Shown piece by piece: positions 2,710 to 59,621 of a DNA stretch of 64,000 nt. The notes under the pieces are model-generated. The model worked only from the letters and a program-made list of their open reading frames with translations, had not been told where the DNA came from and did not search any database. How positions within the stretch are numbered: the first letter of the stretch is position 1; the number at the start of each line of letters is the position of its first letter. The stretch comes from Amphiscolops sp. MND2022 (taxonomy: Eukaryota). The stretch covers positions 310,001 through 374,000 of the forward strand of contig OZ076410.1 in the NCBI GenBank assembly GCA_964187785.1, read 5' to 3'. Both the position numbers and the translations under genes were made by a program.

Positions 2710-3045
2710 AAAATGAGCCTTTTTAAAGGCAGATCATCAGAAATTACCCTTTTTTCCGTACTAAAAGCTAACAATATAAAAATCAATGAACAACTTTTTC
2801 CAATGAAAAATTCATTAGCCAAGTCATGTTCATGAAAAAATAACTATAAAATGAATTATTTATCAGTCAAAGAATTTGTTGATAAATATGGGTTAAGAGA
2901 TGAAGCAAATTCTGATGTAAAGATAACAGAAATCCTTATACAAAATTTTTCTTTGAAAAAACTTGTTCATTGATTTTTATATTGGTGATTTTTAGTAGTG
3001 AAAAAAGGTTGATTTTTAATGATTTGCCCTAAAAAGGGCTTTTTT
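2710..3045. repeat. Imperfect inverted repeat (~105-bp arms, ~130-bp spacer), foldback/MITE-like
   Basis: 2710-2815 is the diverged reverse complement of 2943-3045 (e.g. ATATAAAAATCAATGAACAA / TTGTTCATTGATTTTTATAT). Confidence 0.65.
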
Positions 3046-5920: not shown

Positions 5921-6355
5921 CAAGTCGGAGCCATATCTAAGGCTCAAAAATAGCAAAAGGACTTCAAAGTGTCGATTATTCTCTTCTACAGCACCGAAAC
6001 TCTTTTTCGAAAAAAAGTCTCACAATGCCGAAAAAAACTGAAATGGAGGACCCTTTGGGATTTTTCAACATGCATTCTGTAGCAAAACTCCAAAAAAATG
6101 AAGGGGTACTCTTTGGTGGAAAAAATGTAAAAAAAGTCGCACAGTGCTGGACAAAGTCTAAAGGGTGGACCCTTTGGTCTTGTCCGGTATTGTATGTTAC
6201 GTTATTGTATGTATTATTGAAACCTTTTTGGTTCAGTTCCCTGGGCCAACAGGTAAAATTTGAAATTTTGAAGAAGTTTTGGTAGAACTATTTTGGTCAC
6301 TTCAGGTGGTCTTAAAAAAATCACTGAAATTCAGGAAAAGCGCCGACTGAAAAAG
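5893..6355 (+). mobile_element. Abundant interspersed repeat (ACAAG...GTCGG.GCCATATCTAAGGCTCAAAA family), copy
   Basis: Shared 5' motif, internal GGACCCTTTGGGATTT blocks, 3' end AAAGCGCCGACT plus A-run. Confidence 0.75.
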
Positions 6356-6964: not shown

Positions 6965-7290
6965 TTATTGTGCTCGGGCTAGCATTTTAGTTGTTTTGTG
7001 TCCTAAGAAGAGTTTTAGCATCAATTATGGCAGATTTTGAGCTTTTCAATTATCGTCATGATAAAACGAAGCTATTGAAAGTGTGTAAAATGCAGTGAAT
7101 TTTTAGGATAAGTAATTTTATTCTGTTGGTTTTTGTGCTCGGGCTAGCATTTTAGTTTTTTTTGTGTCCTAAGAAGAGTTTTAGCATCAATTATGGCAGA
7201 TTTTGAGCTTTTCATTTATCGTCATGATAAAACAAAGCCATTGAAAGTGTGTAAAATGCAGTGAATTTTTAGGATAAGGTATTTTATTCT
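6965..7290. repeat. Two ~165-bp tandem units related to the adjacent satellite
   Basis: GTGCTCGGGCTAGC at 6970 and 7135. Shares the GCTATTGAAA.TGTAAAATGCAGTGAAT block with the 118-bp satellite. Confidence 0.85.
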
Positions 7291-9870
7291 GTTTTTCATT
7301 CGTCTTCATGCAACATTTTCGAAATTTCAAAAACTCAGTCAGAATTTAGGAAGGCTATTGAAAAGGTGTAAAATGCAGTAAAAATTGTGTGTTGTGTAAT
7401 TATATTCTGTTGTTTTTTCGTCTACATGCAACATTTTCGAAATTTCAAAAACTCAGTCAGAATTTAAGAAGGCTATTGAAAGGGTGTAAAGTGCAGTGAA
7501 TTTTGTGGGTTGAGTAATTTTATTCTGTTGTTTTTTCGTCTACATGCAACATTTTCGAAATTTCAAAAACTCAGTCAGAATTTAAGAAGGCTATTGAAAA
7601 GGTGTAAAATGCAGTGAATATTGTGAATTGAGTAATTATATTCTGTTGTTTTTTCGTCTACATGCAACTTTTTCGAAATTTCAAAAACTCAGTCAGAATT
7701 TAAGACGGCTATTGAAAGGGTAAAAAATGCAGTGAATTTTGTGGGTTGAGTAATTTTATTCTGTTTTTTTTTCGTCTACATGCAACATTTTCGAAATTTC
7801 AAAAACTCAGTCAGAATTTAAGAAGGCTATTGAAAAGGTGTAAAATGCAGTGATTATTGTGGGTTGAGTAATTTTATTCTGTTGTTTTTTCGTCTGCATG
7901 CAACATTTTCGAAATTTCAAAAACTCAGTCAGAATTTGAGAAGGCTATTGAAAAGGTGTAAAATGCAGTGAATATTGTGAATTGAGTAATTATATTTTGT
8001 TGTTTTTTCGTCTACATGCAACTTTTTCGAAATTTCAAAAACTCAGTCAGAATTTAAGAAGGCTATTGAAAGGGTGTAAAGTGCAGTGAATTTTGTGGGT
8101 TGAGTAATTTTATTCTGTTGTTTTTTCGTCTACATGCAACATTTTCGAAATTTCAAAAACTCAGTCAGAATTTAAGAAGGCTATTGAAAAGGTGTAAAAT
8201 GCAGTGAATATTGTGAATTGAGTAATTATATTCTGTTGTTTTTTCGTCTACATGCAACATTTTCGAAATTTCAAAAACTCAGTCAGAATTTAAGACGGCT
8301 ATTGAAAGGGTGTAAAATGCAGTGAATTTTGTGGGTTGAGTAATTTTATTCTGTTGTTTTTTCGTCTACACGCAACATTTTCGAAATTTCAAAAACTCAG
8401 TCAGAATTTAAGAAGGCTATTGAAAAGGTGTAAAATGCAGTGAATATTGTGGGTTGAGTTATTTTATTCTGTTGTTTTTTCGTCTACATGCAACATTTTC
8501 GAAATTTCAAAAACTCAGTCAGAATTTAAGAAGGCTATTGAAAGGATGTAAAATGCAGTGAATTTTGTGGGTTGAGTAATTTTATTCTGTTTTTCTTTCG
8601 TCTACATGCAACATTTTCGAAATTTCAAAGACTCAGTCAGAATTTAAGAAGGCTATTGAAAGGGTGTAAAATGCAGTGAATATTGTGGGTTGAGTAATTG
8701 TATTCTGTTGTTTTTTCGTCTGCATGCAACATTTTCGAAATTTCAAAAACTCAGTCAGAATTTAAGAAGGCTATTGAAAGGGTGTAAAATGCAGTGAATA
8801 TTGTGGGATGAGTAATTTTATTCTGTTGTTTTTTCGTCTACATGCAACATTTTCGAAATTTCATAAACTTCAGTCAGAACTTAAGAAGGCCATTAAAAGT
8901 GTGTAAAATGCAGTTAATAGTTTGGGATAATTAGTTTTGTTCTGTTTTTTGGGCTGCATGTAACATATTCGAATTTTCATAAATTTAAGTCTGAATTTAA
9001 GAAGGACATTGAAATTGTGTAAAATGCAGTGAATATTGTGGGACGGGTTTTTTTATTTTGTTGTTTTTCGTCTACATGCAACATTTTCGAAATTTCAAAA
9101 ACTCAGTCAGAATTTAAGAAGGCTATTGAAAAGGTGTAAAATGCAGTGAATATTGTGGGTTGAGTTATTTTATTCTGTTGTTTTTTCGTCTACATGCAAC
9201 ATTTTCGAAATTTCAAAAACTCAGTCAGAATTTAAGAAGGCTATTGAAAGGATGTAAAATGCAGTGAATTTTGTGGGTTGAGTAATTTTATTCTGTTTTT
9301 CTTTCGTCTACATGCAACATTTTCGAAATTTCAAAGACTCAGTCAGAATTTAAGAAGGCTATTGAAAGGGTGTAAAATGCAGTGAATATTGTGGGTTGAG
9401 TAATTTTATTCTGTTGTTTTTTCGTCTGCATGCAACATTTTCGAAACTTCAAAAACTCAGTCAGAATTTAAGAAGGCTATTGAAAGGGTGTAAAATGCAG
9501 TGAATATTGTGGGATGAGTAATTTTATTCTGTTGTTTTTTCGTCTACATGCAACATTTTCGAAATTTCATAAACTTCAGTCAGAACTTAAGAAGGCCATT
9601 AAAAGTGTGTAAAATGCAGTTAATAGTTTGGGATAATTAGTTTTGTTCTGTTTTTTGGGCTGCATGTAACATATCCGAATTTTCATAAATTTAAGTCTGA
9701 ATTTAAGAAGGACATTGAAATTGTGTAAAATGCAGTGAATATTGTGGGACGGGTTTTTTTATTTTGTTGTTTTTCGTCTACATGCAACATTTTCAAAATT
9801 TCGTAAACTTCAGTCAGAACTAAGGAAGGCCATTAAAATTGTGTAAAAAGCAGTGAATATTGTGGGATGA
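7290..9870. repeat. 118-bp satellite array (~22 copies) in GPCR intron 1
   Basis: Unit CAGTCAGAATTTAAGAAGGCTATTGAAAAGGTGTAAAATGCAGTGAA...TTTCAAAAACT. Period 118 (7451 to 7569). Confidence 0.97.
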
Positions 9871-33573: not shown

Positions 33574-33781
33574 TGTGGCGTTCATGTCTAGTCAAAACTA
33601 AGTTTTCCAAACACAAAATGTCTGCAAAAAAGAAAAAAAAATGCGTTTCTTCTTAGCCGTGGGCCATAAAGTTTGGATGACCAATTTTCGATGCAGCAAC
33701 ATATCAGGCAAACCACTCCATATGTTTGTTAATACGACCCCAAAGAACTCACTGAATTGCAAAAACCGCCGATTCATTCAT

Positions 33782-34190
33782 TGTTGCTGTGCAATACAAA
33801 TAGAACGGAATTAAAACAAATAATAAGGCCATATAGCCTAGTTGTGTAGAGCACCGGTCTCGAGACCATAAGGTCGCAGGTTCGATCCCCGGAACCGTCA
33901 AATATTTGCGAAATTGCCCAAATATTCAAAATAGCTCTGATTTTTGCAAATATGTATTTCGAATAACCTTGAAAATATGCATAAAAAGGTCTTGCTAGCC
34001 GTTGTTTGTTATTGTTTGATAATATTGATAATTAATTATTGTTCTTTTGCCAACCAAGGTTTAATTTTGAATACTTTCGTAGTATCATTTGCCTCGATTT
34101 GTCAACGATTATGGCCGTATTTGAAAGATATTATTCAACTGCTTCCTTTTTGAACCAAAGTCTATAGTATAGAAACCTTAGACTTTTACA
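33782..34190 (+). repeat. 5' LTR of BEL/Pao element
   Basis: TGTTGCTGTG...CTTTTACA, matches 42448-42856. Confidence 0.97.
33827..33900 (+). ncRNA. tRNA-like Pol III unit inside the 5' LTR (identical copy at 42493-42566)
   Basis: A box TAGCCTAGTTG (33834), B box GGTTCGATCCC (33879) at tRNA-like spacing. The anticodon arm is the perfect palindrome GGTCTCGAGACC. Confidence 0.65.
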
Positions 34191-34207
34191 TGGTGGCAAT
34201 AGAGAGG
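34191..34207 (+). promoter_or_regulatory. Primer binding site of BEL/Pao element
   Basis: TGGTGGCAATAGAGAGG directly after the LTR. TGG pairs with tRNA CCA; the first 8 nt resemble Leu-type PBSs (tentative). Confidence 0.75.
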
Positions 34208-35030
34208 CCCGACTGTTTTGTTATATTTTGGTTAGAAACATATGAGCAGTTGGTTCATTTCCAAAAGCGAAGTGCTTGAACTTTATTCTCTGCTTCTCAC
34301 AAACGTGACTTCTAACACTTGGATTACGAAGAAAAAACATTTCAATACTCATGAAACCTGTCTAACAGCTGCAACTGCGCTGCCCTATTCTTCCCCTTTC
34401 TCGCTGTGACCAACAACCACCGAGCACTGAAGAAGGTGTTAACAGCATCGCCAATACCGCTGCCGCTATCTTTTCTCCTCAACCAGCTAGATTGACACCC
34501 CTGGCTCACAATCCCAACTTTTTCAACAGCTGCAGCAGAAACCCAACTAGAACAGCATCTTCGGATTTCTTCGGCCGCTTCCTCAAGTACGTGTTGTGCC
34601 TCTGAGACATGCACTGCTGTGAACTGGCCTTCCTCAGTTGAAACGTGGCTGAATGAGCAACAGTTCAGCGTCGGTCAGCAAGAATCCAAAGAGCGTCAAC
34701 GATTTCCCGCAAGGAAGACGATCCCCAACCTTTTTTTGCCCCACGATTCTAGAAGCCTTCGGCTGACGAGTCTGACAATTTCGATGACTTCATACCAGCA
34801 AGATCTACCAGGTATTAGTGGTGACAAACCTTAGATGTGTTTTTTCTTTGCTTTGTCCTAAATTTGTGCTAATCAGTGCTAGCAAGACCTGAAAATAGGC
34901 CTTAGGAGTTTTTCCAAGGCGTTCATTCGCAACGCAAATTAGCTCATGTAGACTGATAATCTGAAAAAAAGTTTCATAATTTCCGATAATTTTGGAAAAG
35001 GCAGTGAAAATTGCTACGAAAAAAAACCGA

Positions 35031-35633
35031 ATGGTTCGAATTTTGGCCGCAAGTTCTTTGCACCACGCAATTGAAACTCTAAATCCCGAATATCAAAAGG
35101 CTTTCAAAGAAAAAGTATATTCCATTCCGGGCCTGAGTTTGAACATTAACGCAAAAAATTCTCAAAAAATAGTGCAAAATCTCATTGAAAAAGATTTCGA
35201 AGACGAAAAAGATCTGATAATTTGGCACGACGTCATTAATAACAGTATCTGTAAACATAAAAGCAACTTTTATCGTGCCTTGTCAGTAATTGACTTAGTA
35301 AATGTTCTGAAATCCTATCAACATAGAATCAGGGCTCTTGTGTACTGCCAACGGAATCGAACGCCTGACATTTTCTTGCAATTGAAAGAGACAAACATTC
35401 TTGTACTGAACATTGAAAAAGACTTTCTCTCGCTGCGTAAGCAAAAAGATCTCGATTATTTGCAAAATTTGAAGGCGTTGCACCAGAGTCCTGATCTAGA
35501 ATTGAAACATTTGAATCTAGTTTTGAAATATGAAGATGATTTGTCTCAAATTACTGCCCGAATTCGCCCCAAACGCCCCTCTAAACGAGCCCGCAAAGCA
35601 ATAAAGAACACGTTGCCTGCTGCCAACGATTAA
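35031..35633 (+). CDS. Accessory ORF upstream of gag, putative SGNH/GDSL-hydrolase-like protein (200 aa)
   Basis: Intact ORF MVRILAASSL...SIPGLSL...IIWHDVINNS...KALHQS with a basic C-terminal tail. Motif order resembles SGNH blocks I, II, III and V. Confidence 0.6.
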   Translation: MVRILAASSLHHAIETLNPEYQKAFKEKVYSIPGLSLNINAKNSQKIVQNLIEKDFEDEKDLIIWHDVINNSICKHKSNFYRALSVIDLVNVLKSYQHRIRALVYCQRNRTPDIFLQLKETNILVLNIEKDFLSLRKQKDLDYLQNLKALHQSPDLELKHLNLVLKYEDDLSQITARIRPKRPSKRARKAIKNTLPAAND

Positions 35634-35650
35634 ACTACCCCGCCTCTCGA

Positions 35651-35759
35651 GTTGTAGCTGTGTCCGGACTTAACTGACCGGTTGACGCTGCAACCCGCTT
35701 CCTCCTTTCCTTTCTGTGCTGTGTCCGAGCTTAACTGCTCGGTTGGTGTTCAGAAGGAA
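35651..35759 (+). other. Two similar RNA stem-loops (loop TTAACT) between the accessory ORF and gag
   Basis: Hairpins at 35651-35694 and 35707-35759 share internal and terminal loops, while their stems differ but remain paired. Confidence 0.7.
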
Positions 35760-35864
35760 CTTCCACCCTAAACCGCAGCGTGTTTCTTTTTAATTCTGTC
35801 GTACACCGTGCGACGCATCGTGACTATCTTCTTTTAGCCTAAACAAACAAAAAAAACAGGCAGG

Positions 35865-38800
35865 ATGACAGATTCCCAACACGAAAAAGTTCAAAAACTC
35901 CACGAAAATCGGTTGAAAGCGCAAACCGAATTGAATACTCTCCCACAGAAGATACTCGATTCCATTACAAATGGAGATCGAAGAGTTCTAGTTGAACGTC
36001 TTGTCAAAGAAACCGAAGATGCAATGACGAAAGCTTTCAACAGAAACGAACAGTTGATTACACTTGCATCTAAAACGTCTGACTCGGAAGCAACTCGAGC
36101 CGACTTAGAGAAATGGTTGAGTGAAGTCACTGAGCAAAATGACGAAGTTTTGAGAAAAGCTCGTGATTACATCGACAGTTGCACCGAATCCGATGTGAAG
36201 TCCCACTCATCAGTCGGCACAGTCAACAAAAGCGCATCCAAAAGATCATCAACTTCTGGTAAAACGAAAACATCGAGCCAACGACAAAAAGACCTTCTTT
36301 TAGCAACGCAGCGACGAAAAGAACTAGAACGAAAAAATGCGAATGTCATTCGTTTGGCTAAACAGAAGCAAGAGGTCGCTCGAAAACAATTGAAACGCGA
36401 AAAAGAGCGGTTGGAAGAAGAACAAGCTCTCCGATTGGAAGAACTAGAAGAAGAAAACAGACGAAAACTTGCCGAAGCCAAGCTCACTGAATTGGAATTA
36501 ACAGACGACTTCTCTCAAGTGACCGATGAGTTTCATGAAACTCTGTCTCGGATTAGTAAACACTCGAAGCAAACCACGTCCCAGAGAGTGTCTGATTGGG
36601 TTAATGAAGTCAATGAACCTGATAGTGTTTCAAATCAACCGCAGACTAATACAGTTGATTTAAACAATGTACCTGGATCGTCGAACACAGCAGTCATTCC
36701 TGAATCAAACGATGTTGTTCGAATGCGACAAGCAACGCTAGAAATGAGATCATTAGCTGATGGTAAGATTGGGCCGAGACAAAGCCAGATTCCCCAAATC
36801 GGCATTTTGTCTAATTCTACCATTCTGAGGCCAAACAGTACTCCACCTTCATTTGCTGCGATTAACCTACTGCCCATGTTTCAACTACCAACCGTGAGCA
36901 CCACATCGAACACCGTTTCCTCCATGACAGTACCAGTAGTTAATCAGCAACCTCTGACTATGTTCTCGCAAGTACAACCGTCTGTCGCTCCGGCTACGAC
37001 AAGGACTCAAGTCAACTTTCCAACGAGCCATGTCATACCGAACTTGTCCGCTTGGACTTTTCCGGCTCCGAGTAGCTTCCCCACAGTACATGCTCCAGTT
37101 CCGCTACCAAGCACAACTGCAGCACCAATCGTGACAACAACGGGGATTTTTACACCAGTTGTACCAATTCAAAGCGGAGGTACAACTTTCTATTGTAATC
37201 CGCTTGCGACAACAACCCCATCGATGACTTTCCCGATTCCACCGTCTACAACAGCCCCAGTAAACGTTACTTTTCCGACGTTTCCGCATACAGTTCAGTC
37301 AACCATTCCCCCTGTAACGCCAACTGCAGTTACTATCCAAGATCTTGCACAACTACTGACTGCTGCCAAAAAATACCATCTTCCTGAGTGGAAACTAGAG
37401 CATTATAATGGAGACCCACTGCAATGGCACGAGTGGATTGGACAATTTAGAAGTGCCATTGATTCCGCACCACTCTCGAACGATGTGAAACTCACGTACT
37501 TGAAAACGCTTGTAACTGGCAAGGCCAAGACAGCGATAGCTGAGTTTGCTTATTGCGGCACAATGTATCAAGAAGCACTTAAAACTCTCGAGCGTAAATT
37601 TGGCCAGCCACACGCTGTTGTAAGCGCTCACTTGGACAAATTGAGTGGCTTCCCACCGTTGAAAATGCACAACAGTGAAAACGTGATTGCTTTCTCTGCA
37701 ACGATTTCGGCGTTGGTAGGAGTTTTTCGCTCCTTGAAGTATGAACACGACTTGTCAAGTGCAGCATTTTTGGGCCAAGCAGTACAGAAACTCCCCCCAA
37801 ACATGAAGGAAGCTTGGTCTATGCACACTGTCAAGAAGGATTGGAGCCGGCCAACTCTCTTAGATTTTAACGAATGGTTGAAAGATAAGGCCGAGGCACA
37901 CGAGAGGATGAAAGCCTCAGCCACAAAACCCAAGAACGATGAAAGCGCGCCATCCGTTACTCGAACAAAAACTGGTGCAAAAGTTTTTGCCTCTGCTGCC
38001 TCTAGCGCATCTGCAAACGGAACCGGAACCAAGCCTAACCGAGTGCAACCAAACTGTATCGTGTGCAAAGACAATCATCCACTGTGGCGCTGTCGCGTGT
38101 TTCTTGACAAAACGCCGACCGACAGAGCAAAGATTGTTGCCGAAAACAAACTTTGTTTCTCCTGTCTGAAAGGAAACCATTCTTTCCGACAATGTCCGCA
38201 ACCACGCAAGTGCAACAAAGATGGCTGTAACAGCTCTCACAATACCCTGATACATGGCGCAGAAAGAGTCTTCCAACCAAGAACAACACCGAAACCGTCC
38301 ACTAACCAAGCAACTGGATCACGTAGCCCCAAAACAACTGTGAATAAAGCAGGAGAAAGCTCCGGAGTTTGTTCCGTGAGCGATGTGAAAGGACTTCTTC
38401 AAATAACTGAAGTTGAAGTTCATACTTCAACCACCTCCGTCAAAGTTTTGGCACTGTGTGACTCAGCCTGAAGATCTCGCAACCAAGTTGAACGTAAAGG
38501 GCTTACCGACCAAACTGACCGTTCATGGCATCAACTCGCAACAAGTTGTTGACACTCAAATAGTTGAGCTTAAGTTGACGCCTGTTCATTCGGGTGGCTC
38601 TTGCTCTACTTTTGATGTCAAACCTTACGTCAGAAAAAACTTGCATGTTGGAAACGATGTCATTGATGTTGACCAATTGAAACAACAGTACCCTCACTTG
38701 GAGCCCGTTGCTCTGAGCAAGTACAGCTACGGAGACGTCGAAATGATACTGGGTCAACACGTGTTCCATTCAATCCGCCCATTGGAGTATTTTGAATCCG

Positions 38801-41800
38801 ACCGAAAAAATACTCCAATCGCCGTCCGATTACCGTTGGGTTGGGTTTTGAGTGGGCCATTGCCTTCGACTTCGGGACTTGTCTCGACATGCTTCAAAGC
38901 TGTCACGCAAAATGAAAGTCACTCCAAGTTGGCCGATCAGCTTCGGAGTTGATATGAAATGGAGTCTTTTGCTGCAATGAAACAAGTAGACTCGCGCTCT
39001 GCTGCCGATGCTAGGGCGTCGAAGATTCTACAAGAAACAACATATCATGACGGATGCCGATATCAGGTCGGTATGTTGTGGGCTGATGACGAGAGTAGTC
39101 TCCCGAACAACTATTTTTCAGCCTTAGTGCAGTTGAAATCCCTTGAACGTCGACTCGAAAAATCTCCTGAACTGAAAGCGAGTTACGCTCAGACCATTAA
39201 AGACGACTTCGACAAGGGATACATCGTTCAAGTCGACAAGTCAGACTGTTTCAGAATTGACAACCTGCGTGAGTGGCACCTACCGCACCACCCAGTGTTT
39301 CACCCTCACAAGCCAGGAAAAGTACGCCGCGTACTCAATGGTGCTGCAAAATTTCATGGTGTTTCACTGAACAGCAAACTTTTAACTGGTCCTGACTTGT
39401 TGCAAACGTTAATCCATGTGCTCATGCGATTCCGACAACATCCCTATGCCGTATCCGCTGACATCGAGGGAATGTTTTTACAAGTTGGTGTGATCCCTGA
39501 AGACCGACCGTCTCTTCGTTTTCTGTGGCGGGAGGACCCAGCAACAGATGTCGCTGTGTACCAATACGTACGTCACATTTTCGGTTCTAAGGATTCACCA
39601 ACGTGTGCCAACTACGCGTTGCAACAGACTGCACGTGACAACCGAACCCAATTCCTTGAAGCCGCCAACAGTGTGGAAAACCATTTTTACATGGACGATT
39701 ATCTTGAGTCAAGCCCAACCGTCAACGAAGCAACCAAGAAGGCTCAAGATCTTGTTGAAATGTTAGCAAAAGGCGGTTTCAAACTAACCAAGTTTGTCAG
39801 CAATGTCCCAAGTTTGGTTAACTACGTTGACCCGAGTTCTCAACCGTCTACCGAATCGACCGAGAAAGTCTTAGCAACAGACGAAGAGACATCTCACGTA
39901 TTGGGCTTGAAATGGAACCACGGTCGTGATACTTTGGTTGTCAGCAGAGGCACCACGCCTGACCTGAACCGACCAAATACACAGCGTATTGTTCTTAGCT
40001 TAGTGTCCGCAGTGTATGATCCCATTGGTCTTGTCGCGCCATACACTGTAACTGCCCGCCTTTTGTTGAAAGACATTTGGCGCCTGAGCGGGCAACAATG
40101 GGACAACAACCTACCTGACGACGTTAGCGAAAAGTTCCTTGAATGGGCCGCAGAACTTTCCAAGTTGGGTGAGATAACAATTCCGAGATCCTACTTTCGC
40201 GGAACTATTGAAAATGTCGAGTTACACGTATTCGGAGATAGCTCCCAGGATGTCTTTTCCGCTGTTGCTTTCCTCCGTGCAAGAGTGGACAGCAACGAAG
40301 GGACTGAAACTCAGTTAGCCTTTGTCTTTGGAAAAGCTCGTGTCGCTCCCATGAAAGCGCTAACAATCCCGAAATTGGAACTCCAAGCTGCCCTCTTAGC
40401 AGCCCGACTTAAAGACGAAATCCAACAAGCGCTAACAGTACCGGTTGAAAGAACATTCATGTGGACCGATAGTACAACCGTCCTTCAATCGCTCCATTCC
40501 ATCGACAAGAAACCCGTATTCGTCGCCAACAGAGTTGCCGAAATTCTTGAGTTGACGACGGTTGATGAATGGAACCACGTGCCAACAGCTGACAACCCGG
40601 CAGACGCGGGCACTCGCGGCTTGCCGGCGAACGCCCTTTTGAACAGTCCTTGGCTCAAAGGCCCCAAATTCTTGATGAGTTCTGATTGGCCTTTTCAGCC
40701 GTCAAAAGAAATCTTGAAAACTAAATTGAAGAACTTCGATTCCATTGAAGTCAACACCGAGCCAGTCTACCAAGAGACCACAGCAAATACCGCAAGTGTA
40801 GCTTCTAATGTCCTAACTCTTGAGTGGCAAAAGTACAGCTCGTACGAGAAGCTTTTGCGCATTGTAGCCTACATTTTGCGTATTTCACCGAAGTTTTCTT
40901 GTAACAGAACTAAAACAAAAACCATCACTGATCCTGTCGAGCTTGAAAGTGCTGAGCAGAAACTGTTCTTCTTGGTACAGTCCGAATCGTTCCCGAACGA
41001 AACAAAAAATCTGCTCAAGTCTTGTCCATTGTTCAAGCCTTCAATCATAAAAGATTTCTCCCCCTTCATCGGTCCAAACGGCCTTCTCCGCGCTCAAGGT
41101 CGAACAAAAAACCTGGAAGTTGCCAACTTCGATGTCAAGCACCCTATCTTGCTTGACAGCCGACACCCTGCAGTTCGACTATTTCTGGAACATCTCCATG
41201 AGAAACATTGCCATCAAGGCGTCGAATACTTCAGAGCCTTGATACAGCAAAAGTTTGCCATCGTAAAATTGAGAACAACACTGAGGACTATCCAAACCAG
41301 ATGCGTAACATGTCGCAAACGCAAAGCAGAGACGCTGACCCCGATAATGGCCGACCTGCCAAAAGAACGCCTGGCGTTTGCAGCGCGACCTTTTACAAAC
41401 ACTGGCTTGGACTACTTTGGCCCTTTCTATGTATCTGTTAAACGCTCCACGGAGAAGCGGTGGGGTTTTCTCTTCACATGCCTAACAACACGCGCCGTCC
41501 ATTTCGAAGTTGTGCCATCAATGGACACCAGCAGCTGTGTCATGGGAATTGAGAGCTTTGTTTCCCACCGGGGCATCCCCTCCGTCATCTGGTCAGACAA
41601 TGGGACGAACTTTGTTGCAACAGAGAAAGAACTACTCCAGAACGTCCTCAAGTGGAATCATCAATCAATTGCCGAATCCATGGTAAAGAAAGGTGTCAAC
41701 TGGAAGTTTAATCCTCCTAGTGCCCCACATCATGGCGGTGTCTGGGAAAGACTAGTGAGAAGTTTCAAGCATACTTTCTACGCGATACTCGGTAACAGAC

Positions 41801-42285
41801 GTTTGACTGACGAAATTCTAACCACTGTGTTTTGTCTTGTGGAACAGAGCCTCAACGCTCGTCCGCTGGTTCCAGCAAGCGCAGATGCAACTGACTTGGA
41901 TGCGGTAACGCCCAACCACTTCTTGCTTGGAACAGCTGGCTCATCGCTACCGTCCCATTCTAACTGTGATTTCGATCACCGCAAGCGATATGCACGAGCC
42001 CAAGCCTATTCTGACGCTATCTGGAACAGGTGGCTGAAAGAATACGTGCCAACTTTGAATCGTCGCTCAAAATGGCCCTCACAGTCCGCCAGGGAATTGA
42101 AAACCGGAGATCTTGTCTGAATCGTGGAACCCACAAGCCCGAGAGGCTACTACCCTCTCGCGCGCGTCGTCAAACTCAACTTTGGCAGCGATGCCGTCGC
42201 CCGCTCTGCCGAAATTAAGACCACGTCCGGAAACCTCGTCCGTCCAGCCGTGAAACTAGCCCCAGTCCTTCCTTCCCCCGAATAA
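35865..42285 (+). pseudogene. BEL/Pao gag-pol polyprotein, disrupted
   Basis: Pao gag (LPEWKLEHYNGDPLQW), triple Cys/His knuckles, protease LCDSA, RT FYMDDYL, RNase H LHVFGDSS, integrase HEKHCH/CVTC, GLDYFGP, SDNGTNF, GGVWERLV. Frameshifting deletion at ~38469; TGA stops at 38950 and 42118. Confidence 0.95.
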
Positions 42286-42447
42286 CCTGATTTATTGTAA
42301 CCCGTAACATTTGTAATTAACCTATTAACCACATGTACCTTTAAAACACGTATCACCATATGTATCATGTATTTTTGTATCGAATCGATCATGAAAGAAA
42401 AAAAAATTTTTTTTGTTCCGACAGATCATCTTCTTGGGCCCGAAGGA

Positions 42448-42856
42448 TGTTGCTGTGCAATACAAATAGAACGGAATTAAAACAAATAATAAGGCCATAT
42501 AGCCTAGTTGTGTAGAGCACCGGTCTCGAGACCATAAGGTCGCAGGTTCGATCCCCGGAACCGTCAAATATTTGCGAAATTGCCCAAATATTCAAAATAG
42601 CTCTGATTTTTGCAAATATGTATTTCGAATAACCTTGAAAATATGCATAAAAAGGTCTTGCTAGTTGTTGTTTGTTATTGTTTGATAATATTGATAATTA
42701 ATTTTTGTTCTTTTGCCAACCAAGGTTTAATTTTGAATACTTTCGTAGTATCATTTGCCTCGATTTGTCAACGATTATGGCCGTATTTGAAAGATATTAT
42801 TCAACTGCTTCCTTTTTGAACCAAAGTCTATAGTATAGAAACCTTAGACTTTTACA
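42448..42856 (+). repeat. 3' LTR of BEL/Pao element
   Basis: Preceded by GGGCCCGAAGGA (weak PPT) and followed by TSD TTCAT. Confidence 0.97.
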
Positions 42857-45800
42857 TTCATGTTGTTTTTGGTACCGGCTTCAGATTTTTGAGACTGAGT
42901 TTCTTGAAGTGATTTTTTATACCCTAAACTTTTCTATCTAAATTTTCCAACTGGAAAGGTTTTGTCCAAATGTTTGGCAGAAATGAAAACATTTATCCGG
43001 TCCTCTGCATCTTTGATGTTCAGAGTGAAACCTCGTGTGAAATAACTTTGGAGTTAACCACTGATTTTTCTTGTCGATTGATTACTCGCTCAGATTTTGA
43101 TACGCTTCTTGCCTCGCAAATAACCAAGGCAGTGAAATGTGCTTGAAACAGACAAACATACTCCCGCCTTTCACAAAATGGGAGTTTGAACTCCTGTCTT
43201 ATAACCAGATCTCTCACTTAAGTTATAAAACCTAGAATTTTTTATTACTCTGCCATAACCTCGACAGTACACCGGGAAGTCGAAAATTGACAAAATTTTG
43301 GCAAAATTTTTTTCAAAGCTTCATTTCTCCACAAATAATAGCCGCAGCTCCAATCGGTTTTCTGTTCCTGGAAGCCCTTTACCTAAGCTTTCAAATGCAC
43401 ATTAGTTAGGTCGCGAGTTGGCGCCACTTGTTGGGGTGAGAGCGCCGAGATTTCAAATGCCAATTGTACTCATAACTGAAGCTTCGTTGAAAAAACTTCT
43501 ATATGCATTTTCAATGGTGGCCTACTCTGTTACTAGAGTGGGACAGTAACTTAGCAAACAGTTGCTCAGTTATTGAGAAAAAACGAATTTTCTGAAATGT
43601 ACTTTTTTTCACTTTTTGCAATTTTTCACTTTTTTTCAGTTGCTTTTTAGCCAGTTGCTCGGAAAAAAATCTATATTGACTCAAATAACAATTCACACCA
43701 GACAGTCCAATAGATTGTCGATAAGAAAGACAGTTTTTCGTTTTCTTCTATGCTTTTTGCGTCGTAATTTATTATTGATTGCGAAAAAAAATCGCTGTTC
43801 TCATTTGAGGACGAAATCACTGTCGAGGATAATAAATCCTCCTAAGGCGAACTACAAACGAACACGAAAGTTGTTGTAACTTCTGCAGTGCGAAATATCC
43901 CCCCATTACCCTCACAATTTTACGTTTTTTTATTTCAGTTAGTCAATCGGTCGAATCCAAAACTTAGCTGAGAGAAAACAGGTTTGAGACAACTGAAATG
44001 AGAACGAAAACGTACTTTCCTATCGTCACAAAAGTTTTTTAAATGTACCAAGGTTTCCCTCGCTGACAGATCATTTCCGGCTGATTGACTGCCGATCCAC
44101 ATAATTCCACACAACGCTTATTGATTCAAAATGCAAGTTGCAAACTGAGAAATTTCAACGCGCTTTTTTGAAAAAAAATTATGGACACCTAATTTTCGAG
44201 AGTTCTGTTCACGCCTGGCTGCCTGTTTACGAAGTTGTTCACGACGCTCGACTGACCTAAACGGGAAGTTGGCCATAAATATTCAATAAACTCCAGATAG
44301 AAGAACTTCTTAAAAACGTCAGGAATCATCGGAAGCCATGGCATTGTTTAGATAGCAGCTGGGAAAAGTCGAGCTTCAATAATTTGCGGGGCGTTTGATT
44401 TAATGCGTGGAATTTAGATTGAAGAGATAACATGGATGGATATAATATCATGCCTCTCAGAGTTGAAGCAAGAACTGCGAATGAAAGCTACATGGAAGTT
44501 TCCAGACACCTCCTTTGAGAAATTATGCAAATTTGCCATACCACTTCCACAATTGCAACGAAAAAATGAAAAAATTGGCATTTTTATTGAATCACTTAGT
44601 CTTCCAAATGTCGTTTCTCAACTTCTGCACTCAAGAAATCACAGTCACTCAAATCGCTCGCCAACGGTGACACAAGCTTACAATTGATAAGTGGTTGCAC
44701 AAGTTTTTTTGCATAAAATAAGCGGTAACTTACGGATGAAGATTTTGCTGCTTTCAAAAATTGAACAGATGCGAATTAGGACCTGCAAAGCCTCTTTGTT
44801 TTGAAGTGCCGCCAATTTCAAAATAGCTGTCAAACTAGACAGCAAACGAAGTCTCTGACGCAACAGAGAATTTTAGACATCAAACGAAAAGCCTAACGCA
44901 ATTGGGAATTTTTGACCTTGGAAAATTGGACGGTGTTTTATGAAGCATGATAAAAATAGTTCGTTCAGTGTTCGCAATGTTGATCCAATGGCGTAATGGG
45001 GCGGCGTTGCTCGAAAAATATTTGGTCATCCGAAAGCTGAAAACTACTTCGTGCAAAATGCCTATCCCAAACTGCTGTAACTTTTTACGTGCTGCACACC
45101 TGCTGTAACGGCAAGCGTTAAGCGTTTGTTACGTGACGATAGTGTGGAGGAACTGATATCATGGATATTGTCCGGGACAAACCACCATGCCACCAGCCCA
45201 TTTTACCTCCTAGGGGTTGCCGGTCCCGAGTAGGGGGAACTGTCTTAAAGGATGCTCTCCGGTCTGATCCAGTCTGTAACTGCTGAGAATAACGGGCATC
45301 CGTCTCGGACCTTCGCCTCAGACCACCGTTTAGACAGCCTTTAAAAACAATGCCAAGGATAAACATTGTAAATTTCCATCCTCAGGGTGGTATCGGAATA
45401 AGATCAAAAATTCGGAATAGTATCTAAAATTGCACAAACTAGCACTCGAGCTACTCCAGATGGATAAACCCAGCGAAAATACATCACAGCACACATCAAA
45501 CTGGCAGTCCACGCATCTACAAGTTGAGGCGCAGGGGCTTCAAGCACCAAACAAGAATAATTATGCCAAAAGTCTCATTTCACCGGCAATGAATGCTCCA
45601 ATGGCAATGAAAATTGTAAACACTTTCCATTTCGTCACCGACATGATCACCTTGTATTCACACTTTTTTCCCAACTGCTCATCTGATGTGATCACCGCTT
45701 TTCAGAAAGCACACTAAATAACGCTTAATAGCAGTTAAAGAAGCGGCGGAAGGTATTTTGTATTAAAATGGTGGTAAAACTGATAACAACATTGTTGCAT

Positions 45801-53777: not shown

Positions 53778-56700
53778 TGTTGTAACTTTATGGTACAAGA
53801 ATTTACTTTCTATCAAGACTGTATTTTATCTCAAAGCTATTGTTTCTCAACGAACTTTAGTATGATAAAGATAATACAGTATAGGCAGGTACTTCAGACT
53901 AATTAAATAACAATAAGAACAATAGTGTCTGAGATATAAAGTTTGTCCTCTAGCTTATTCAGCTATGCCACATTCCCCCCTCTTTGATTGGAAGTAGCTT
54001 AGCCAATGGGGAGTGTGTTTTCTATTGTTGAGGCGGTCTTCCGTCCAAAGCTGTTGTTGTTCACGGTGTTCCGTGTACTTCCTTCTTTTGTGGTCCGGTT
54101 GTCAGGATGTTCTTCCGGAGCGGTCCATTTAGTTTGTTGGGTTAGTTGTTGTCCATATTGTCCTCGGTGTCCGGTGTGTTTTCCCGGCCATTCAGTCTTT
54201 TGACGGTGTTTCCTATAATCAGAAGGTACTGGATTATTAAGCCTGATTATTGGGTTGGTTTTTGTCAAGCGGTTCGATCTACGTAAATTATGTTCTTTTG
54301 TTTCTTGTTCAATTTCGGTACTTGAGCTGAGATTGCTAAGTAATTCTAGTTCTGAGGTGTCTTGTTCGGTATAACTATTTTCTACATTGTCTTCTTCCCC
54401 TCCTTTGGGGGATTGGTAGTTATTTTGAATTACCTTACCGTTATTGTCTTTGAGGTGTAGTTCTGTGTTTGCCCTTCTGGCATCCTCAATGACACGGTCT
54501 ATTTCCGCGTCCGTCATGTTCTCCGTTACTACTGTTAACGGTCCAATGTTTGATTGTTGTTCCGGGTTGGTGTGAGTTTCTCCCGGAGAGCCAGAGTTTT
54601 GGCGGTTTCTGACTAGCTTTGGTCGTCCCCTGCCAATTGTGCTGTGTTTTGGGGGCGGTGTTGTGTGCTCTCCAAATGTTGTAGTTGCTGTGGCGGTCAC
54701 TACCGGTGAGGCTTCTCCATGGTCGCTGTCTGAGTCTGGGACATTGACTATCCTCGGTGATTTGGTAAAGCGGCCATCTGGTCCTCGTGGTCCGATGCCC
54801 CGATTGGTGTTGTTTTCCTGTACAATTTCAGAAATGGGTTTAATAATATGTTTTCTGTGCAAGATTTTATTATCCGACGTTGTTATTGTATGTTTGGTGC
54901 CCGATATGGCTGTCTGTGTTTTATCGGAATATGCACTTTCAAACTTCGGTTTATTTATTTTCTTTTCAAAGAAAAGGAACGGATATTTACTAACTCCTTT
55001 TTCTCCTTTCTTCTGCTTCATCGGTAGTTGGTCGGAGGCACCGCCAGCTCCGCTGAATGAGTACACCTGTAAGGTGTCTGGTTTTGCTGAAATACAACTT
55101 TTTGTAATAGACTTTAAAGCGTCTAGGTTTAACATATTGCTTATTTCCGTGTTCGGTTCGCGTTCGTAGTGTAGCTCAAATGCTGACCTTTTTAATCTCG
55201 TATGGGGTGTTTTCCGCATGATTTCCAGAGCTATGTCTAAAGCTTTACCGAATTTCTCTCCGGCCTTGATATTGGTTAGTAATGTTTCTTTCAATATTCT
55301 TACGCCGCGTTCAACCAATCCTGTCGGTGTATGGATATACGGTGTCCCGTATATTAATTTTATCTGGTGAGTTTTGCAAAAGTCTCCAAATGTACGGCCC
55401 GTGAACGCGGTAGCTTTATCCGTTCTAATGGTTTTCGGGATGCCGTTCAGATTTATGTACTGTTCTAGGAATTTAGTCGCCGTTTGTCCGTCCGTGGTTT
55501 TACATAAGCTGGCTGCGGGTCATTTGCTAAATCGGTCCATTGAAAGTAAAATGTAGAATTTTTGGTTCTTTTCGCTTATGGGGCCGATGAAATCCATTTG
55601 GATTTCTTCGTTCGGTTTATTTACGGTTGGTAATTGACTTACTTCCGTACTAGAGATGTTAGGTTTAATGCTCTTACCGGACATTTTGCACGGTACACAG
55701 CCGTCGCACTTTTTCTGGATAGCTTCCGTCAACTTTGGCCACCAGAAGTGTCTCGCTGCCATCGACATCTTGTTAATGGCGGGGTGTCCCTTGTGAAGGA
55801 GGCTAATTATTGTGTTCCGTAGGTTCTTCGGGACAATTATTCTATCTTCGAAGAATTCCAATCCGTATCTGGTGGAGAGCTTTTTCTTGTACATGGTGTA
55901 TTCCTCGGGCATGTTGTCATGTTGCTGGCGTTCCAGACATACCAGCGTTTTTAGGAGGCTAGGGTCGTTTGTGGTCTCCGACATAAGTAACTGGAGATCT
56001 GTGGAGAAATTCTTTTCAGTTTCTCTGACGGCGTTCCCCAGGTCCCAACTGTTTTGTTCCTCTGAGTCTACTCTGGGAGCGTGGCCCATCTTTATGTACT
56101 GGACGCTTTTGACGTCCACGTATTTGGCCCAATTGATGGCCGGAACTTCTAGGACGGACGGGTCCTGATCGGTATCTGATCCGATTTCGCCTTCTTCCAT
56201 TGGGGCGTACAGTGTGATCGGAGATGATGTCCCGGGTTGCTCTTGTGGTCGCTGTGGGCGATCTAGTTCCCAGAATGGGTCAAAGGTCCATTGTTCATTT
56301 AGCCGTTGTTGTGGCTGAAATCCCTGCGGTTGTTGTTGTTGTCCCGGTAAGTTTTGTATGGCTAATTGTAGGCGTTCTTCTATCTATTATTTTCCGTTCG
56401 TTCCGGAGAAATTTTGGCTCGTGGTATTTCTTCCAACGGCCACCGGATTGTCTGTAAATGCCCGGTTTTACTATGTCTCTCCATCGGGCTATCAGTTGTC
56501 TGGTTTCTGCAGACGAGTCTGCGGCTTCAAGGTTATCTATGGTTCTAGCGTCCATAGTTAAGTTGTTCGAATTTGTGATAGAATTGATGCAACTTTCTGG
56601 CGGTCGATTAAGGCAAGCAATGGCAGTTTGTTCACGCGTTTTGGAATGTTTCGATTCACTAATCCGAGTCGCGTCGTGTGATTGGTTAAAGTGGTTGCTA

Positions 56701-59621
56701 TGGCAACCGTATTTGACTACGAATTTGTAGTGCGGGACGATGTTGTTGATTACGTATTCTTCGTCGTATGCGTCATCCGCTTGCGGTGGTGCTGACGGAT
56801 TACGACTGAGATAATCCGTGAGCGCTAAGTGTTTACCATCAATATGGCTTACGTTGATTGAAAAGTGAGCTAATCGGTCGAGCCATCTAGTTAGCCGTGC
56901 GCTGTATGTTTTGTTTGAACGGTTTCGTTTAATTAATGGTTCTAGAGCTTGGTGATCCGTAAGTAATTTTATCGGTTTTCCGTATATGTATAAACGGAAG
57001 TGTTCAAGCCCCCATACCACCGCTAATAGCTCCAGTTCGTTAATGGCGTATTTCTTTTCCGTGTCTGAAAGAAAGCGACTGGCAAATCCGATCGGTTTTA
57101 GTTTACCGTCCGGTTGTTCTTGCCATAGTGTAGCCCCAAGGCCTTTTGTGCTGGCGTCTGTGGTGATTATGTTTGGGTAATTAGAATTGTAGTGCGCCAG
57201 ACACGGTATTTCCGTGATTTTTTGTTTTAAATTTTCGAATGCTTCCGTGTGTTCCTCGGTCCAAATCCAGTCATTATCCTTTTTTAGCAGTTGTCTTAAA
57301 ACGTCCGTTTGTGCTGAGAGATTTTCTTTGTACTTTGACAAATATTGGATTGCTCCGAGGAATGATTTAAGTTCCTTTTCATTCTCCGGTTTCTTCAAGT
57401 TTTTAATCGCCAGTAACTTGTCCTGTAACGGTCTAATTCCGTTTTGCTCAATTTTATGTCCAATCCATTCAATTTCGGTTTTGAACAGCTCCGATTTGCT
57501 TTCGCTCAGTCTGTAACCGGCGTTTTCCAGTTTTGATAGTACGTCGGTTAATTCCTCCAAATGTTTTTGTTTGGAGCCTTTTGTTACGACTATGATGTCG
57601 TCTAGCCATGCTGGGTGTTTGTTTTCCAGTGTTTGGTCAATTTTCTCTTGGAATATCGTCGGGATGTCGGCTAGCCCGTAAAAGCCTTTTAAAAATCGGT
57701 AATAACCGGTAAAGTTTCCCCCGGTTACTGCGAAGATACATAAGTCCATTGCCTTTTTTGATAATCTAAGTTGACCGTATGCATAATCTAAATCGAACTT
57801 CGAGATCCAGATTTCGTCCGCCGGTCCGTCTGCAATTTTTCTGGAGATTCTTGATATTAATTCCTCCATATTGGGCATTTGTGCCTTTCTTTTATTGTTA
57901 TTTCGTTTAGTTTTCTTGAGTCCAGTGCAATTTTTACCGACTTGTCTTTTTTATGGTGATTACCGCTGGGCTTACGAAACAATTTTCGTCAATATTTTCA
58001 GCTTTTTCGATGTGGCCCAATTTTTTCAATTTTTCGATTTCTTTACCCACTGCTTGTTGCAAATGGATAGGAAAGGGTCTACCTTTTTGTTGGATTAGTT
58101 TTGCGTCGTCTTTTAATTGTATATCAACTTCCACGTTTTCTACCGTGTGGTTTGTTGAAAATAATTTGTGGAACTTACTTTTCAGTGCTGTTATTTCACG
58201 TTCCGAGTTGCGGCTGATTTGGTTCGGTTTGTCGGTGATGTGTTTTATTGTTTGGGTGTTATTGTCCGTGATCAGTGTGATTCCGAGTTTTTCCATCCAG
58301 TCTAATCCGAGTAGTGGGTGTGTTTGTTTAGTTGTTACCAGTAATTCCAGTTGTCTCTCTTTACCATCTATTCTTATGTTGGCGGTTGTTTTCCCTTCAA
58401 ATTTTATTTTGTTGTCGTTCACGTCCCGGTAGTCTGTAGTTACCGGCTTCATTGTTGTAATATTGTTGAATTTTGATTTTGGAATTAGAGTTATTGGTGA
58501 GCCTGTATCAACGATGAATTTGATTGGTCGGTTATTGACCAATAACGTTTTGGTGTAGAACGGTAGTCCGTTCTTACTTCCATTGCCCAGTGAGTTGATT
58601 TTTTGTTGAATTGAGTGTATTCTGTCTGGTGTCCACTCGTCTTCGTCTGTTTCTGGAGATTCATTTAGTTTTTCATACATGTACTCATGTATTGCCTCTG
58701 TGATAGCCTCCACTGACATGTCACTTTTTCTAATTTTCTTTTTTAATTCGTAGTCGCCTGTGGATTTCCCGATGAGCGATAAGAATTTTGAGGCCAAGAG
58801 TTCGGCTGCCGTAATGGTTTCGAACTCGCAGTTTTTTTCCACCTCCAGTTTTCTCTTCCAGACGTCTGCGGCCGTTTCGTTTGATTCTCTTTTCAAATCG
58901 AAAAAATCGGCCCTGCTGTGTTGCACGTTCCGTTCTGGAGTGAAATGTAGTCGGAATAGGCTGTATAGTCTATGTAACGGTAGAGTGTTGGGTTCTCGTT
59001 CTCTCACCGTTTTTGTCATTTCTGATAGGGCACTTTGTCCAATTGCCCAAAGAAACGTGTCTTTGATTTCTAGTTCCAGTTGATCGCGGAATTGTGGCAG
59101 GATTTCTTTTGGATTTACCATTTGTGATAAATCGATGTCTTTTGTCATTTTAATATATTGGACAAATTTTCGCCACCACAAATTTGCGCTGGAGCTGTCG
59201 TGTTTTTCTATGCTGGGAATGGTCAATTTCTGGGTACATGTCCGTTCTCCCGCTCTTGTTGTTGTTTCATTGGGTATCAACTGGCTGCTGGATGATTGAT
59301 CGGTTGCCCGGTCATGCTGTTCCCCCATTGGACGGGTGGTGTTCGTGTCTTCCATTCTTTGGTAATTGATGGGCTGATCACGAATGTTTATGGTGAATGT
59401 CAGTTATACTGACACTGACTGCGCCATGTTGTAACTTTATGGTACAAGAATTTACTTTTTATCAAGACTGTATTTTATCTCAAAGCTATTGTTTCTCAAC
59501 GAACTTTAGTATGATAAAGATAATACAGTATAGGCAGGTACTTCAGACTAATTAAATAACAATAAGAACAATAGTGTCTGAGATATAAAGTTTGTCCTCT
59601 AGCTTATTCAGCTATGCCACA
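53778..59621 (-). mobile_element. Ty3/Gypsy LTR retrotransposon with both LTRs, 5-bp TSD TCTGT
   Basis: 195-bp LTRs (53778-53972, 59427-59621) differing by 1 substitution. TSD at 53773-53777 and 59622-59626. PBS TGGCGCAGTC on - after the 5' LTR; PPT CAAAGAGGGGGGAA before the 3' LTR. Confidence 0.97.
53999..59355 (-). pseudogene. Gypsy gag-pol polyprotein, disrupted
   Basis: Gag; protease FIVDTGS; RT SKFDLDYAY and WLDDII; RNase H TTDAS, NELELLAV, TDHQAL; integrase HKGH/CDGC, MDFIGP, RTDKATAF, GLVERGV. Frameshifts near 57945 and ~56380; TGA stop at 55520. Confidence 0.93.

Follow-up and report, generated by a model that had tools for sequence, protein, structure and literature searches.

The two LTRs of a BEL/Pao retrotransposon of 9,075 bp in the window (the whole 64-kb stretch of DNA analysed here) carry a tRNA-derived unit with an A box and a B box, and hundreds of LTRs from 9-kb coding elements retain these boxes. 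The Pol III promoters known in LTRs belong to the short, non-coding Cassandra, Helenus and Ajax elements, where they presumably make the replicating RNA, and to foamy viruses, where they make small RNAs. On the sequence comparisons set out below, the unit is best read as a selected, dispensable Pol III/TFIIIC module of the LTR. The features of the element, in window coordinates, are as follows.

33777-33781 and 42857-42861: 5-bp target duplication TTCAT, flanking the element
33782..34190, plus strand: 5' LTR, 409 bp, with TG...CA ends and 3 differences from the 3' LTR
33827..33900, plus strand: tRNA-derived unit of the 5' LTR, 74 nt, not a tRNA gene
33834..33844, plus strand: A box, with T8, R9, G10 and A14 present and GG at tRNA positions 18-19 absent
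33856..33867, no strand: 12-nt palindrome, restricted to the window's unit type
33879..33889, plus strand: canonical B box, the best-conserved stretch of the LTR
33941..33945, plus strand: T5 run, predicted Pol III terminator, 41 nt past the unit (predicted RNA ~118 nt)
33983..33997, plus strand: conserved LTR motif, retained also by the unit-less subfamily
34191..34208, plus strand: primer-binding site, complementary to the 3' end of host tRNA-Ile(AAT), with one mismatch in this copy
35838..38471, plus strand: gag-region frame with DUF1759 (Pfam match)
38407..42120, plus strand: pol region with RT, Pao peptidase PF05380, integrase zinc finger and core, and the start of DUF5641
42426..42447, plus strand: conserved stretch preceding the 3' LTR, with a polypurine-tract-like site at its end
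42448..42856, plus strand: 3' LTR, 409 bp
42493..42566, plus strand: tRNA-derived unit of the 3' LTR, identical to the 5' copy

The element is assigned to BEL/Pao on the basis of DUF1759, RT, PF05380, integrase and DUF5641, found in this order between TG...CA LTRs, and the tRNA primer site, polypurine-tract site and short target duplication expected of a member are all present. Its pol region overlaps the gag frame, and stops lie at 38950-38952 and 42118-42120. The conserved motif at 33983..33997 is a candidate Pol II promoter or 3'-end signal. Host tRNA-Ile(AAT) genes form a tandem array and their 3' end pairs with the primer site, so there is no need to invoke the unit as a self-primer. At L020, L029, L160, L188, L189 and L191, the primer sites are longer than 18 nt by several bases, which reach into the T loop of tRNA-Ile, and this suggests that reverse transcription went further into the primer. 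The leader of the window's element (34209-35837) holds a 217-codon frame (34980-35633) without a Pfam match. Elements that are 90–99% alike in their LTRs and 3' ends cannot be aligned over the 300 nt past the primer site (~0.5 identity), and the leader seems to be a swappable module too, like the 5' half of the unit described below. The last 75 nt of the LTR (34116-34190 in the window) likewise exist in several versions, which assort independently from the remaining LTR.

The unit begins 46 nt inside each LTR. The first-pass annotation had reported an identical tRNA-like segment with both boxes in the two LTRs, and we confirmed that 33827-33900 and 42493-42566 are identical. The likeness to a tRNA holds for the canonical B box and for an A...B arrangement beyond chance, and is incomplete in the A box: GG at positions 18-19 is missing in the window's subfamily and present in older relatives of the same unit type. 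A functional tRNA gene was rejected for the window's unit, as ARAGORN detected no tRNA anywhere in the window, Rfam (RF00005 included, up to E=10) gave neither a tRNA nor a 5S match for the unit, the 74 nt fold no better than their shuffles (z -0.45) and the stems have decayed. Two other unit types, L272 and L273, do exceed the Rfam tRNA cut-off. Such LTRs can inflate tRNA annotation, two Rfam tRNA matches being LTR units.

So that LTRs were not selected for carrying the unit, the genome was searched with the LTR end and primer site rather than with the unit, and all 86 matches were read. A B box was present in 75 of these 86 LTRs anchored on the primer-binding site, mostly 94–112 nt from the LTR start, while the 11 LTRs without one comprised eight from a single unit-less subfamily (334-bp LTR) and three that are 5'-truncated. 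With a second anchor, the polypurine tract and the start of the 3' LTR, we retrieved 296 LTRs with a B box 84–113 nt in. At least 63 of the first 100 places in an independent list belong to those 296 LTRs, and the other 37 include units with altered boxes and several apparently unit-less lineages (judged on 80 bases each). Direct searches for the unit returned 40 scored matches (74 candidates), 39 of which lie in an LTR context by coordinates or flanks. The sole non-LTR match (L080, G000:C3:91757907-91757958) is a free-standing relative with its own T-run, in an intron-like setting adjoining an apparent exon end. Other BEL families, about eight by eye, showed no B box in the 3' LTR among the best 30 of 150 listed DUF5641 matches; one of these 30 loci has a B-box match 1,022 nt downstream, outside the LTR. 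That the unit travels with the element, as first suggested, is borne out by its identity in both LTRs and by the B box in 75 of 86 family LTRs.

The 75 units were grouped into 19 clusters and then 16 types, with L130 (truncated), L140 (internal deletion) and L008 (the window's type) dropped. Across the 16 types, column conservation was 0.97 in the B box, 0.64 over the whole A box, 0.60 in the anticodon arm and 0.57–0.75 in most other parts of the LTR. All five A-box features were found in 13 of 16 types, and the full A-box...B-box pattern occurred in 13 of 16 types compared with 1 of 32,000 shuffled LTRs; a strict version of the pattern was passed by 56 of the 75 units, the quality of the A box being variable. 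Every type (16/16) has a run of four or more Ts no more than 60 nt past the B box, compared with 34% of shuffles of that stretch, although the types share ancestry and are not independent, and T4 runs occur in 56% of other 55-nt segments of the LTR. No such run was found inside any of the 71 units that could be parsed. The distance separating the two boxes is conserved as well. Among 35 pairs of close subfamilies, identity was 0.98 in the B box, 0.56 in the 5' half of the unit, 0.84–0.85 in the downstream LTR and 0.92 in the pol protein, and within types (128 pairs) divergence was 0.005 in the B box, 0.015 in the 5' half and 0.027–0.058 in the flanks. Base pairing has fared differently: pairs outside the boxes are kept in 18 of 48 cases in the T stem, 30 of 80 in the anticodon stem and 56 of 112 in the acceptor stem (fixed register), and the sequence between the boxes is poorly conserved across types. 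Because the boxes are kept while the stems and cloverleaf are lost, we infer that selection acts on the DNA boxes rather than on RNA shape, with the proviso that the types share ancestry. The first-pass annotation had proposed a family-wide comparison of LTRs and their boxes, and its outcome favours the unit, most LTRs (75 of 86) carrying the segment with boxes better kept than their surroundings. A passive SINE insertion in one sublineage was rejected, since 39 of 40 matches are LTR-bound, the boxes outlast their flanks and metagenome relatives carry the unit too.

Representatives of most unit types are 7.6–9.3 kb long, with pol and 5-bp duplications, and many of their LTR pairs are >98% identical; the exceptions are L229, which has no pol, and L231 and L235, which are decayed. 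The pol of unit-bearing elements is 63–97% identical to that of the window's element. Phylogenetic analysis of pol (FastTree, 39 of 40 rows, L229 being left out for want of a pol match) placed the unit-less subfamily nested beside the window's group (support 0.98), and this nesting makes its absence of the unit a secondary loss. The subfamily counts eight copies, five of which have LTR pairs 98.5–99.7% identical. The unit is dispensable, as this nested subfamily spread without it, and close subfamilies with different unit versions and without a unit constitute a natural experiment.

Relatives were also recovered from metagenomes, at 80 loci of which 43 have at least 500 nt past the match. In an integrase tree (FastTree, 79 of 80 loci, L368 left out), ten metagenome loci form one clade with the elements of this genome (support 0.99), and eight of the ten show LTR-side sequence. 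Four of these relatives, all in the supported clade and with integrases 56–70% identical, show the unit: in L299 and L316 both boxes are complete and accompanied by a T-run, while in L295 and L296 the A box is present and the contig stops at the B box. No unit was seen in the LTR-side sequence of L293 and L294, nor within the <200 nt of such sequence in L298 and L300. Of the loci outside the clade, L357 carries a B box in the LTR and L371 an ambiguous tRNA-like piece, and 12 others with a detected LTR start have no unit, the start having escaped automatic detection in 52 of the 80 loci.

The 5' half of the unit varies blockwise between subfamilies, in discrete versions that resemble different host tRNAs. 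Its identity of 0.56 between subfamilies, set against a divergence of 0.015 within a type, indicates block replacement and not a raised mutation rate. The unit types were compared with tRNA genes of the host, in eight sets. Counted from T8, L273 agrees with Lys(TTT) at 26 of 26 bases and L272 at 25; L128 has 17 exact bases in common with Gly(TCC), its best run with any other tRNA set being 9; L144 and L378 have 16–17 exact bases in common with Ser; and the 13 exact bases that L111 has in common with Asp are weak, since the background reaches 12. Many unit types have no clear donor among the eight sets, and the true donors could be tRNAs with similar D arms outside them. For the window's type, Ile (17.5 of 26) and Lys (18 of 26) are not separable as donors. 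An origin of the window's unit from the element's own primer tRNA-Ile was rejected on these scores and on the longest run common to unit and tRNA-Ile, which at 11 is under the Ile–Lys background of 14. New 5' halves would be picked up by a reverse transcriptase that changes template to a co-packaged tRNA or 5' tRNA half, and captured halves would then be reshuffled between subfamilies through recombination. The match of L273 to Lys stops at the anticodon loop, which fits the capture of a 5' half by template switching, and exchange among old versions within the family appears to contribute, given that the window's unit type sits on two separate pol lineages. Host tRNA genes of a single type stand together in tandem arrays that reach hundreds of copies, many of them degenerate, with units of ~190–220 bp. 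Such arrays were seen at G000:C3:50.90-50.96 Mb, C7:5.23-5.34 Mb, C8:36.02-36.06 Mb, C2:20.86-20.91 Mb and C9:19.09 Mb, and the units of the Arg array on C8 measure ~300 bp.

Our preferred reading, in which we have about even confidence, is that the unit acts at the level of DNA, as a TFIIIC/Pol III site protecting or opening the LTR. When bound at the unit, TFIIIC/Pol III would yield no more than a short RNA that stops at the T-run past the unit, and would keep the edge of the inserted copy open or block spreading silencing. An open edge would in turn help a Pol II promoter lying deeper in the LTR, and the genomic RNA would presumably be made by Pol II. Precedent comes from fission yeast, where tRNA genes are Pol III-dependent heterochromatin barriers (PMC2040200, in its accessible part), and more widely from tRNA genes and tRNA-derived repeats that can bound chromatin (accessible parts of PMC2040200 and PMC8136502). 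Those barriers are host genes or free SINEs and are not built into LTRs, and the effect of B2 is linked to CTCF in what is accessible of PMC8136502. By analogy, the unit of the window's clade may have barrier activity, and in this way it would benefit the element.

TFIIIC binding alone needs less than an intact A box. An A box kept intact beyond TFIIIC's needs is fitted equally well if it is the short Pol III RNA (~80–125 nt) that matters and not the site, the RNA serving as a decoy or small-RNA precursor in the manner of foamy virus cassettes. Changing the 5' half would then alter targets or evade host small RNAs, and discrete, diverged 5' halves fit such diversifying selection. All three signals, A box, B box and terminator, have been retained, with no T4 inside 71 of 71 units, and they are what the foamy virus LTR Pol III RNAs require (PMC3993851, the portion available). 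Foamy viruses resemble the window's element in having short A-box/B-box/terminator units in the LTR while the long RNA is made by Pol II (same portion of PMC3993851), and at the level of sequence the window's LTR does hold an A box, a B box and a terminator. However, foamy viruses are retroviruses whose products have been experimentally shown to be hairpin miRNA precursors (available portion of PMC3993851), whereas the unit of the window's clade is tRNA-derived and no conserved hairpin was found among the RNAs predicted for the 16 types. These RNAs, 78–126 nt long, lack a common fold (z < -2 in 2 of 16), and the inter-box sequence is not conserved. We regard a role of the short RNA itself as rather unlikely, if well worth weighing.

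It is improbable that the unit is mostly a neutral passenger, an old tRNA or SINE piece whose boxes are restored by recombination with abundant tRNAs or gene arrays. Unit-less lineages have still amplified, some 5' halves are near-exact tRNA copies and A-box quality is variable, all of which a passenger would explain. The B box, however, lies in the 3' part common to the types, independent of donors, yet is the best kept (0.98 between types), and within types it has diverged far less than its flanks. In addition, the stems decayed and the boxes did not, and the unit persists in relatives from other samples.

Still less probable, in our judgement, is that the unit promotes the replicating RNA from the tRNA +1 position, through Pol III or a hand-over to Pol II, as in Cassandra or Helenus. 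The closest known kind of element is Helenus/TRIMp3 (Kojima 2024, PMC10886601), for which copying from a Pol III RNA has been proposed (PMC10886601). The anatomy of its LTRs is equal to that seen here (PMC10886601), and a short U3 would allow for the position of the unit close to the 5' end of the LTR. Common to both are tRNA-derived sequences in the two LTRs that are conserved at boxes A and B without being functional tRNAs, and a separate tRNA primer site, the tRNA-derived sequence not priming. Helenus elements are non-coding and 311–1263 bp long, and are mobilized by Gypsy (in animals, with a 4-bp duplication) or Copia (PMC10886601); in contrast, the window's element belongs to BEL/Pao, measures 9 kb, encodes gag and pol, has 5-bp duplications and carries a T-run right past the unit. 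It therefore has the A/B-box LTR sequence of Helenus and is neither short, non-coding nor non-autonomous. Cassandra TRIMs also keep a Pol III promoter and terminator inside the LTR (PMC7215508, as far as accessible), and their transcripts start in the 5S part of the 5' LTR and end in that of the 3' LTR (PMC10886601 and the accessible part of PMC7215508). They are plant, non-coding elements with a 5S-derived type 1 promoter (same sources), unlike the coding element with a tRNA-type unit studied here, in whose LTR Rfam, up to E=10, revealed no 5S rRNA-derived sequence of the Cassandra/Ajax kind. The analogy to Cassandra drawn at the outset consequently stands for the Pol III-type boxes in the LTR and fails for the rest, as the window's element is coding and 9 kb long, with a T5 run 41 nt past the unit and 58 T4+ runs in its interior.

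An RNA for replication would have to span ~8.7 kb and be translated, and the element interior contains 58 T4+ and 19 T5+ runs. The T5 run at 33941, the 58 T4+ runs, the need for translation and the replication of unit-less lineages make it unlikely that Pol III transcribes the genomic RNA, and Kojima 2024 (PMC10886601) contends that it must be Pol II that serves autonomous partners. Positions 1–320 of the LTR co-track the 3' internal end (rho 0.51–0.69) more closely than do its last 90 nt (0.36–0.44), the leaders being unalignable, and this weakly suggests that the unit lies in U3, against a start at the tRNA +1. With Pol III an unlikely source of the replicating RNA, the boxes, if selected, must do something else.

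The 12-nt palindrome in the anticodon arm, perfect at 33856-33867 as first noted, had been suggested to serve RNA dimerization. It occurs in 7 of the 86 LTRs anchored on the primer-binding site, all of one unit type, and is perfect in 17 of the 22 LTRs closest to the window's and in none of the eight of the next-closest set. Shuffling the unit 3000 times yielded a perfect 12-nt palindrome in 67 cases (~2%), and shuffling the LTR 3000 times yielded one in 461 (~15%), so that the palindrome is weak by itself. Although the palindrome is perfect in the window and most of its closest relatives and some variants retain G-U pairing, its restriction to one unit type, the shuffle frequencies and its explanation as an anticodon-stem remnant make a dimerization signal highly improbable, and as a clade-wide role it was rejected.

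A broader scenario, which we offer tentatively and hold to be doubtful as a whole, would combine the preferred anti-silencing role with the renewal of 5' halves. In it, an old, cross-species lineage of autonomous BEL/Pao elements would keep an anti-silencing Pol III module at the LTR edge and renew its A-box half by capturing 5' halves from different host tRNAs during reverse transcription. The result would be a hypervariable cassette with which the element races against silencing by host small RNAs or chromatin. Helenus-type elements might have originated by internal deletion of such coding elements. Searches of the openly readable literature, Repbase apart, retrieved no report of conserved A/B boxes in the LTRs of coding BEL/Pao elements, and the accessible part of the oyster genome paper (PMC9679248) contains nothing on tRNA units in LTRs. 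Prior cataloguing is possible, as 'not a few' Repbase LTRs resemble parts of tRNAs according to Kojima 2024, who analysed only short ones (PMC10886601).

Several other repeats were observed. An unrelated second repeat of ~14 kb, from L291:236 to L292:7567 (G000:C1:26075235-26089566) and also at L281 and L284-L290, has AGTAGT...ACTACT ends, a 6-bp target duplication and inverted repeats of 4.7 kb. We take its ends to be Polinton-like. Pfam searches in five frames detected no polymerase or integrase in it, only a ribosomal S5 fragment. Another tRNA-like A/B-box unit, pointing outward, lies ~100–170 nt from each of its ends, and these outward units account for ~45 of the first 100 places listed. 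Within the window, a broken Gypsy-type element occupies 53999-59403 on the minus strand, with pieces of aspartyl protease, RT, RNase H and integrase, and two tandem repeats are present, an array of ~22 copies of 118 bp at 7065-9868 and a triplication of ~983 bp at 3027-6015.
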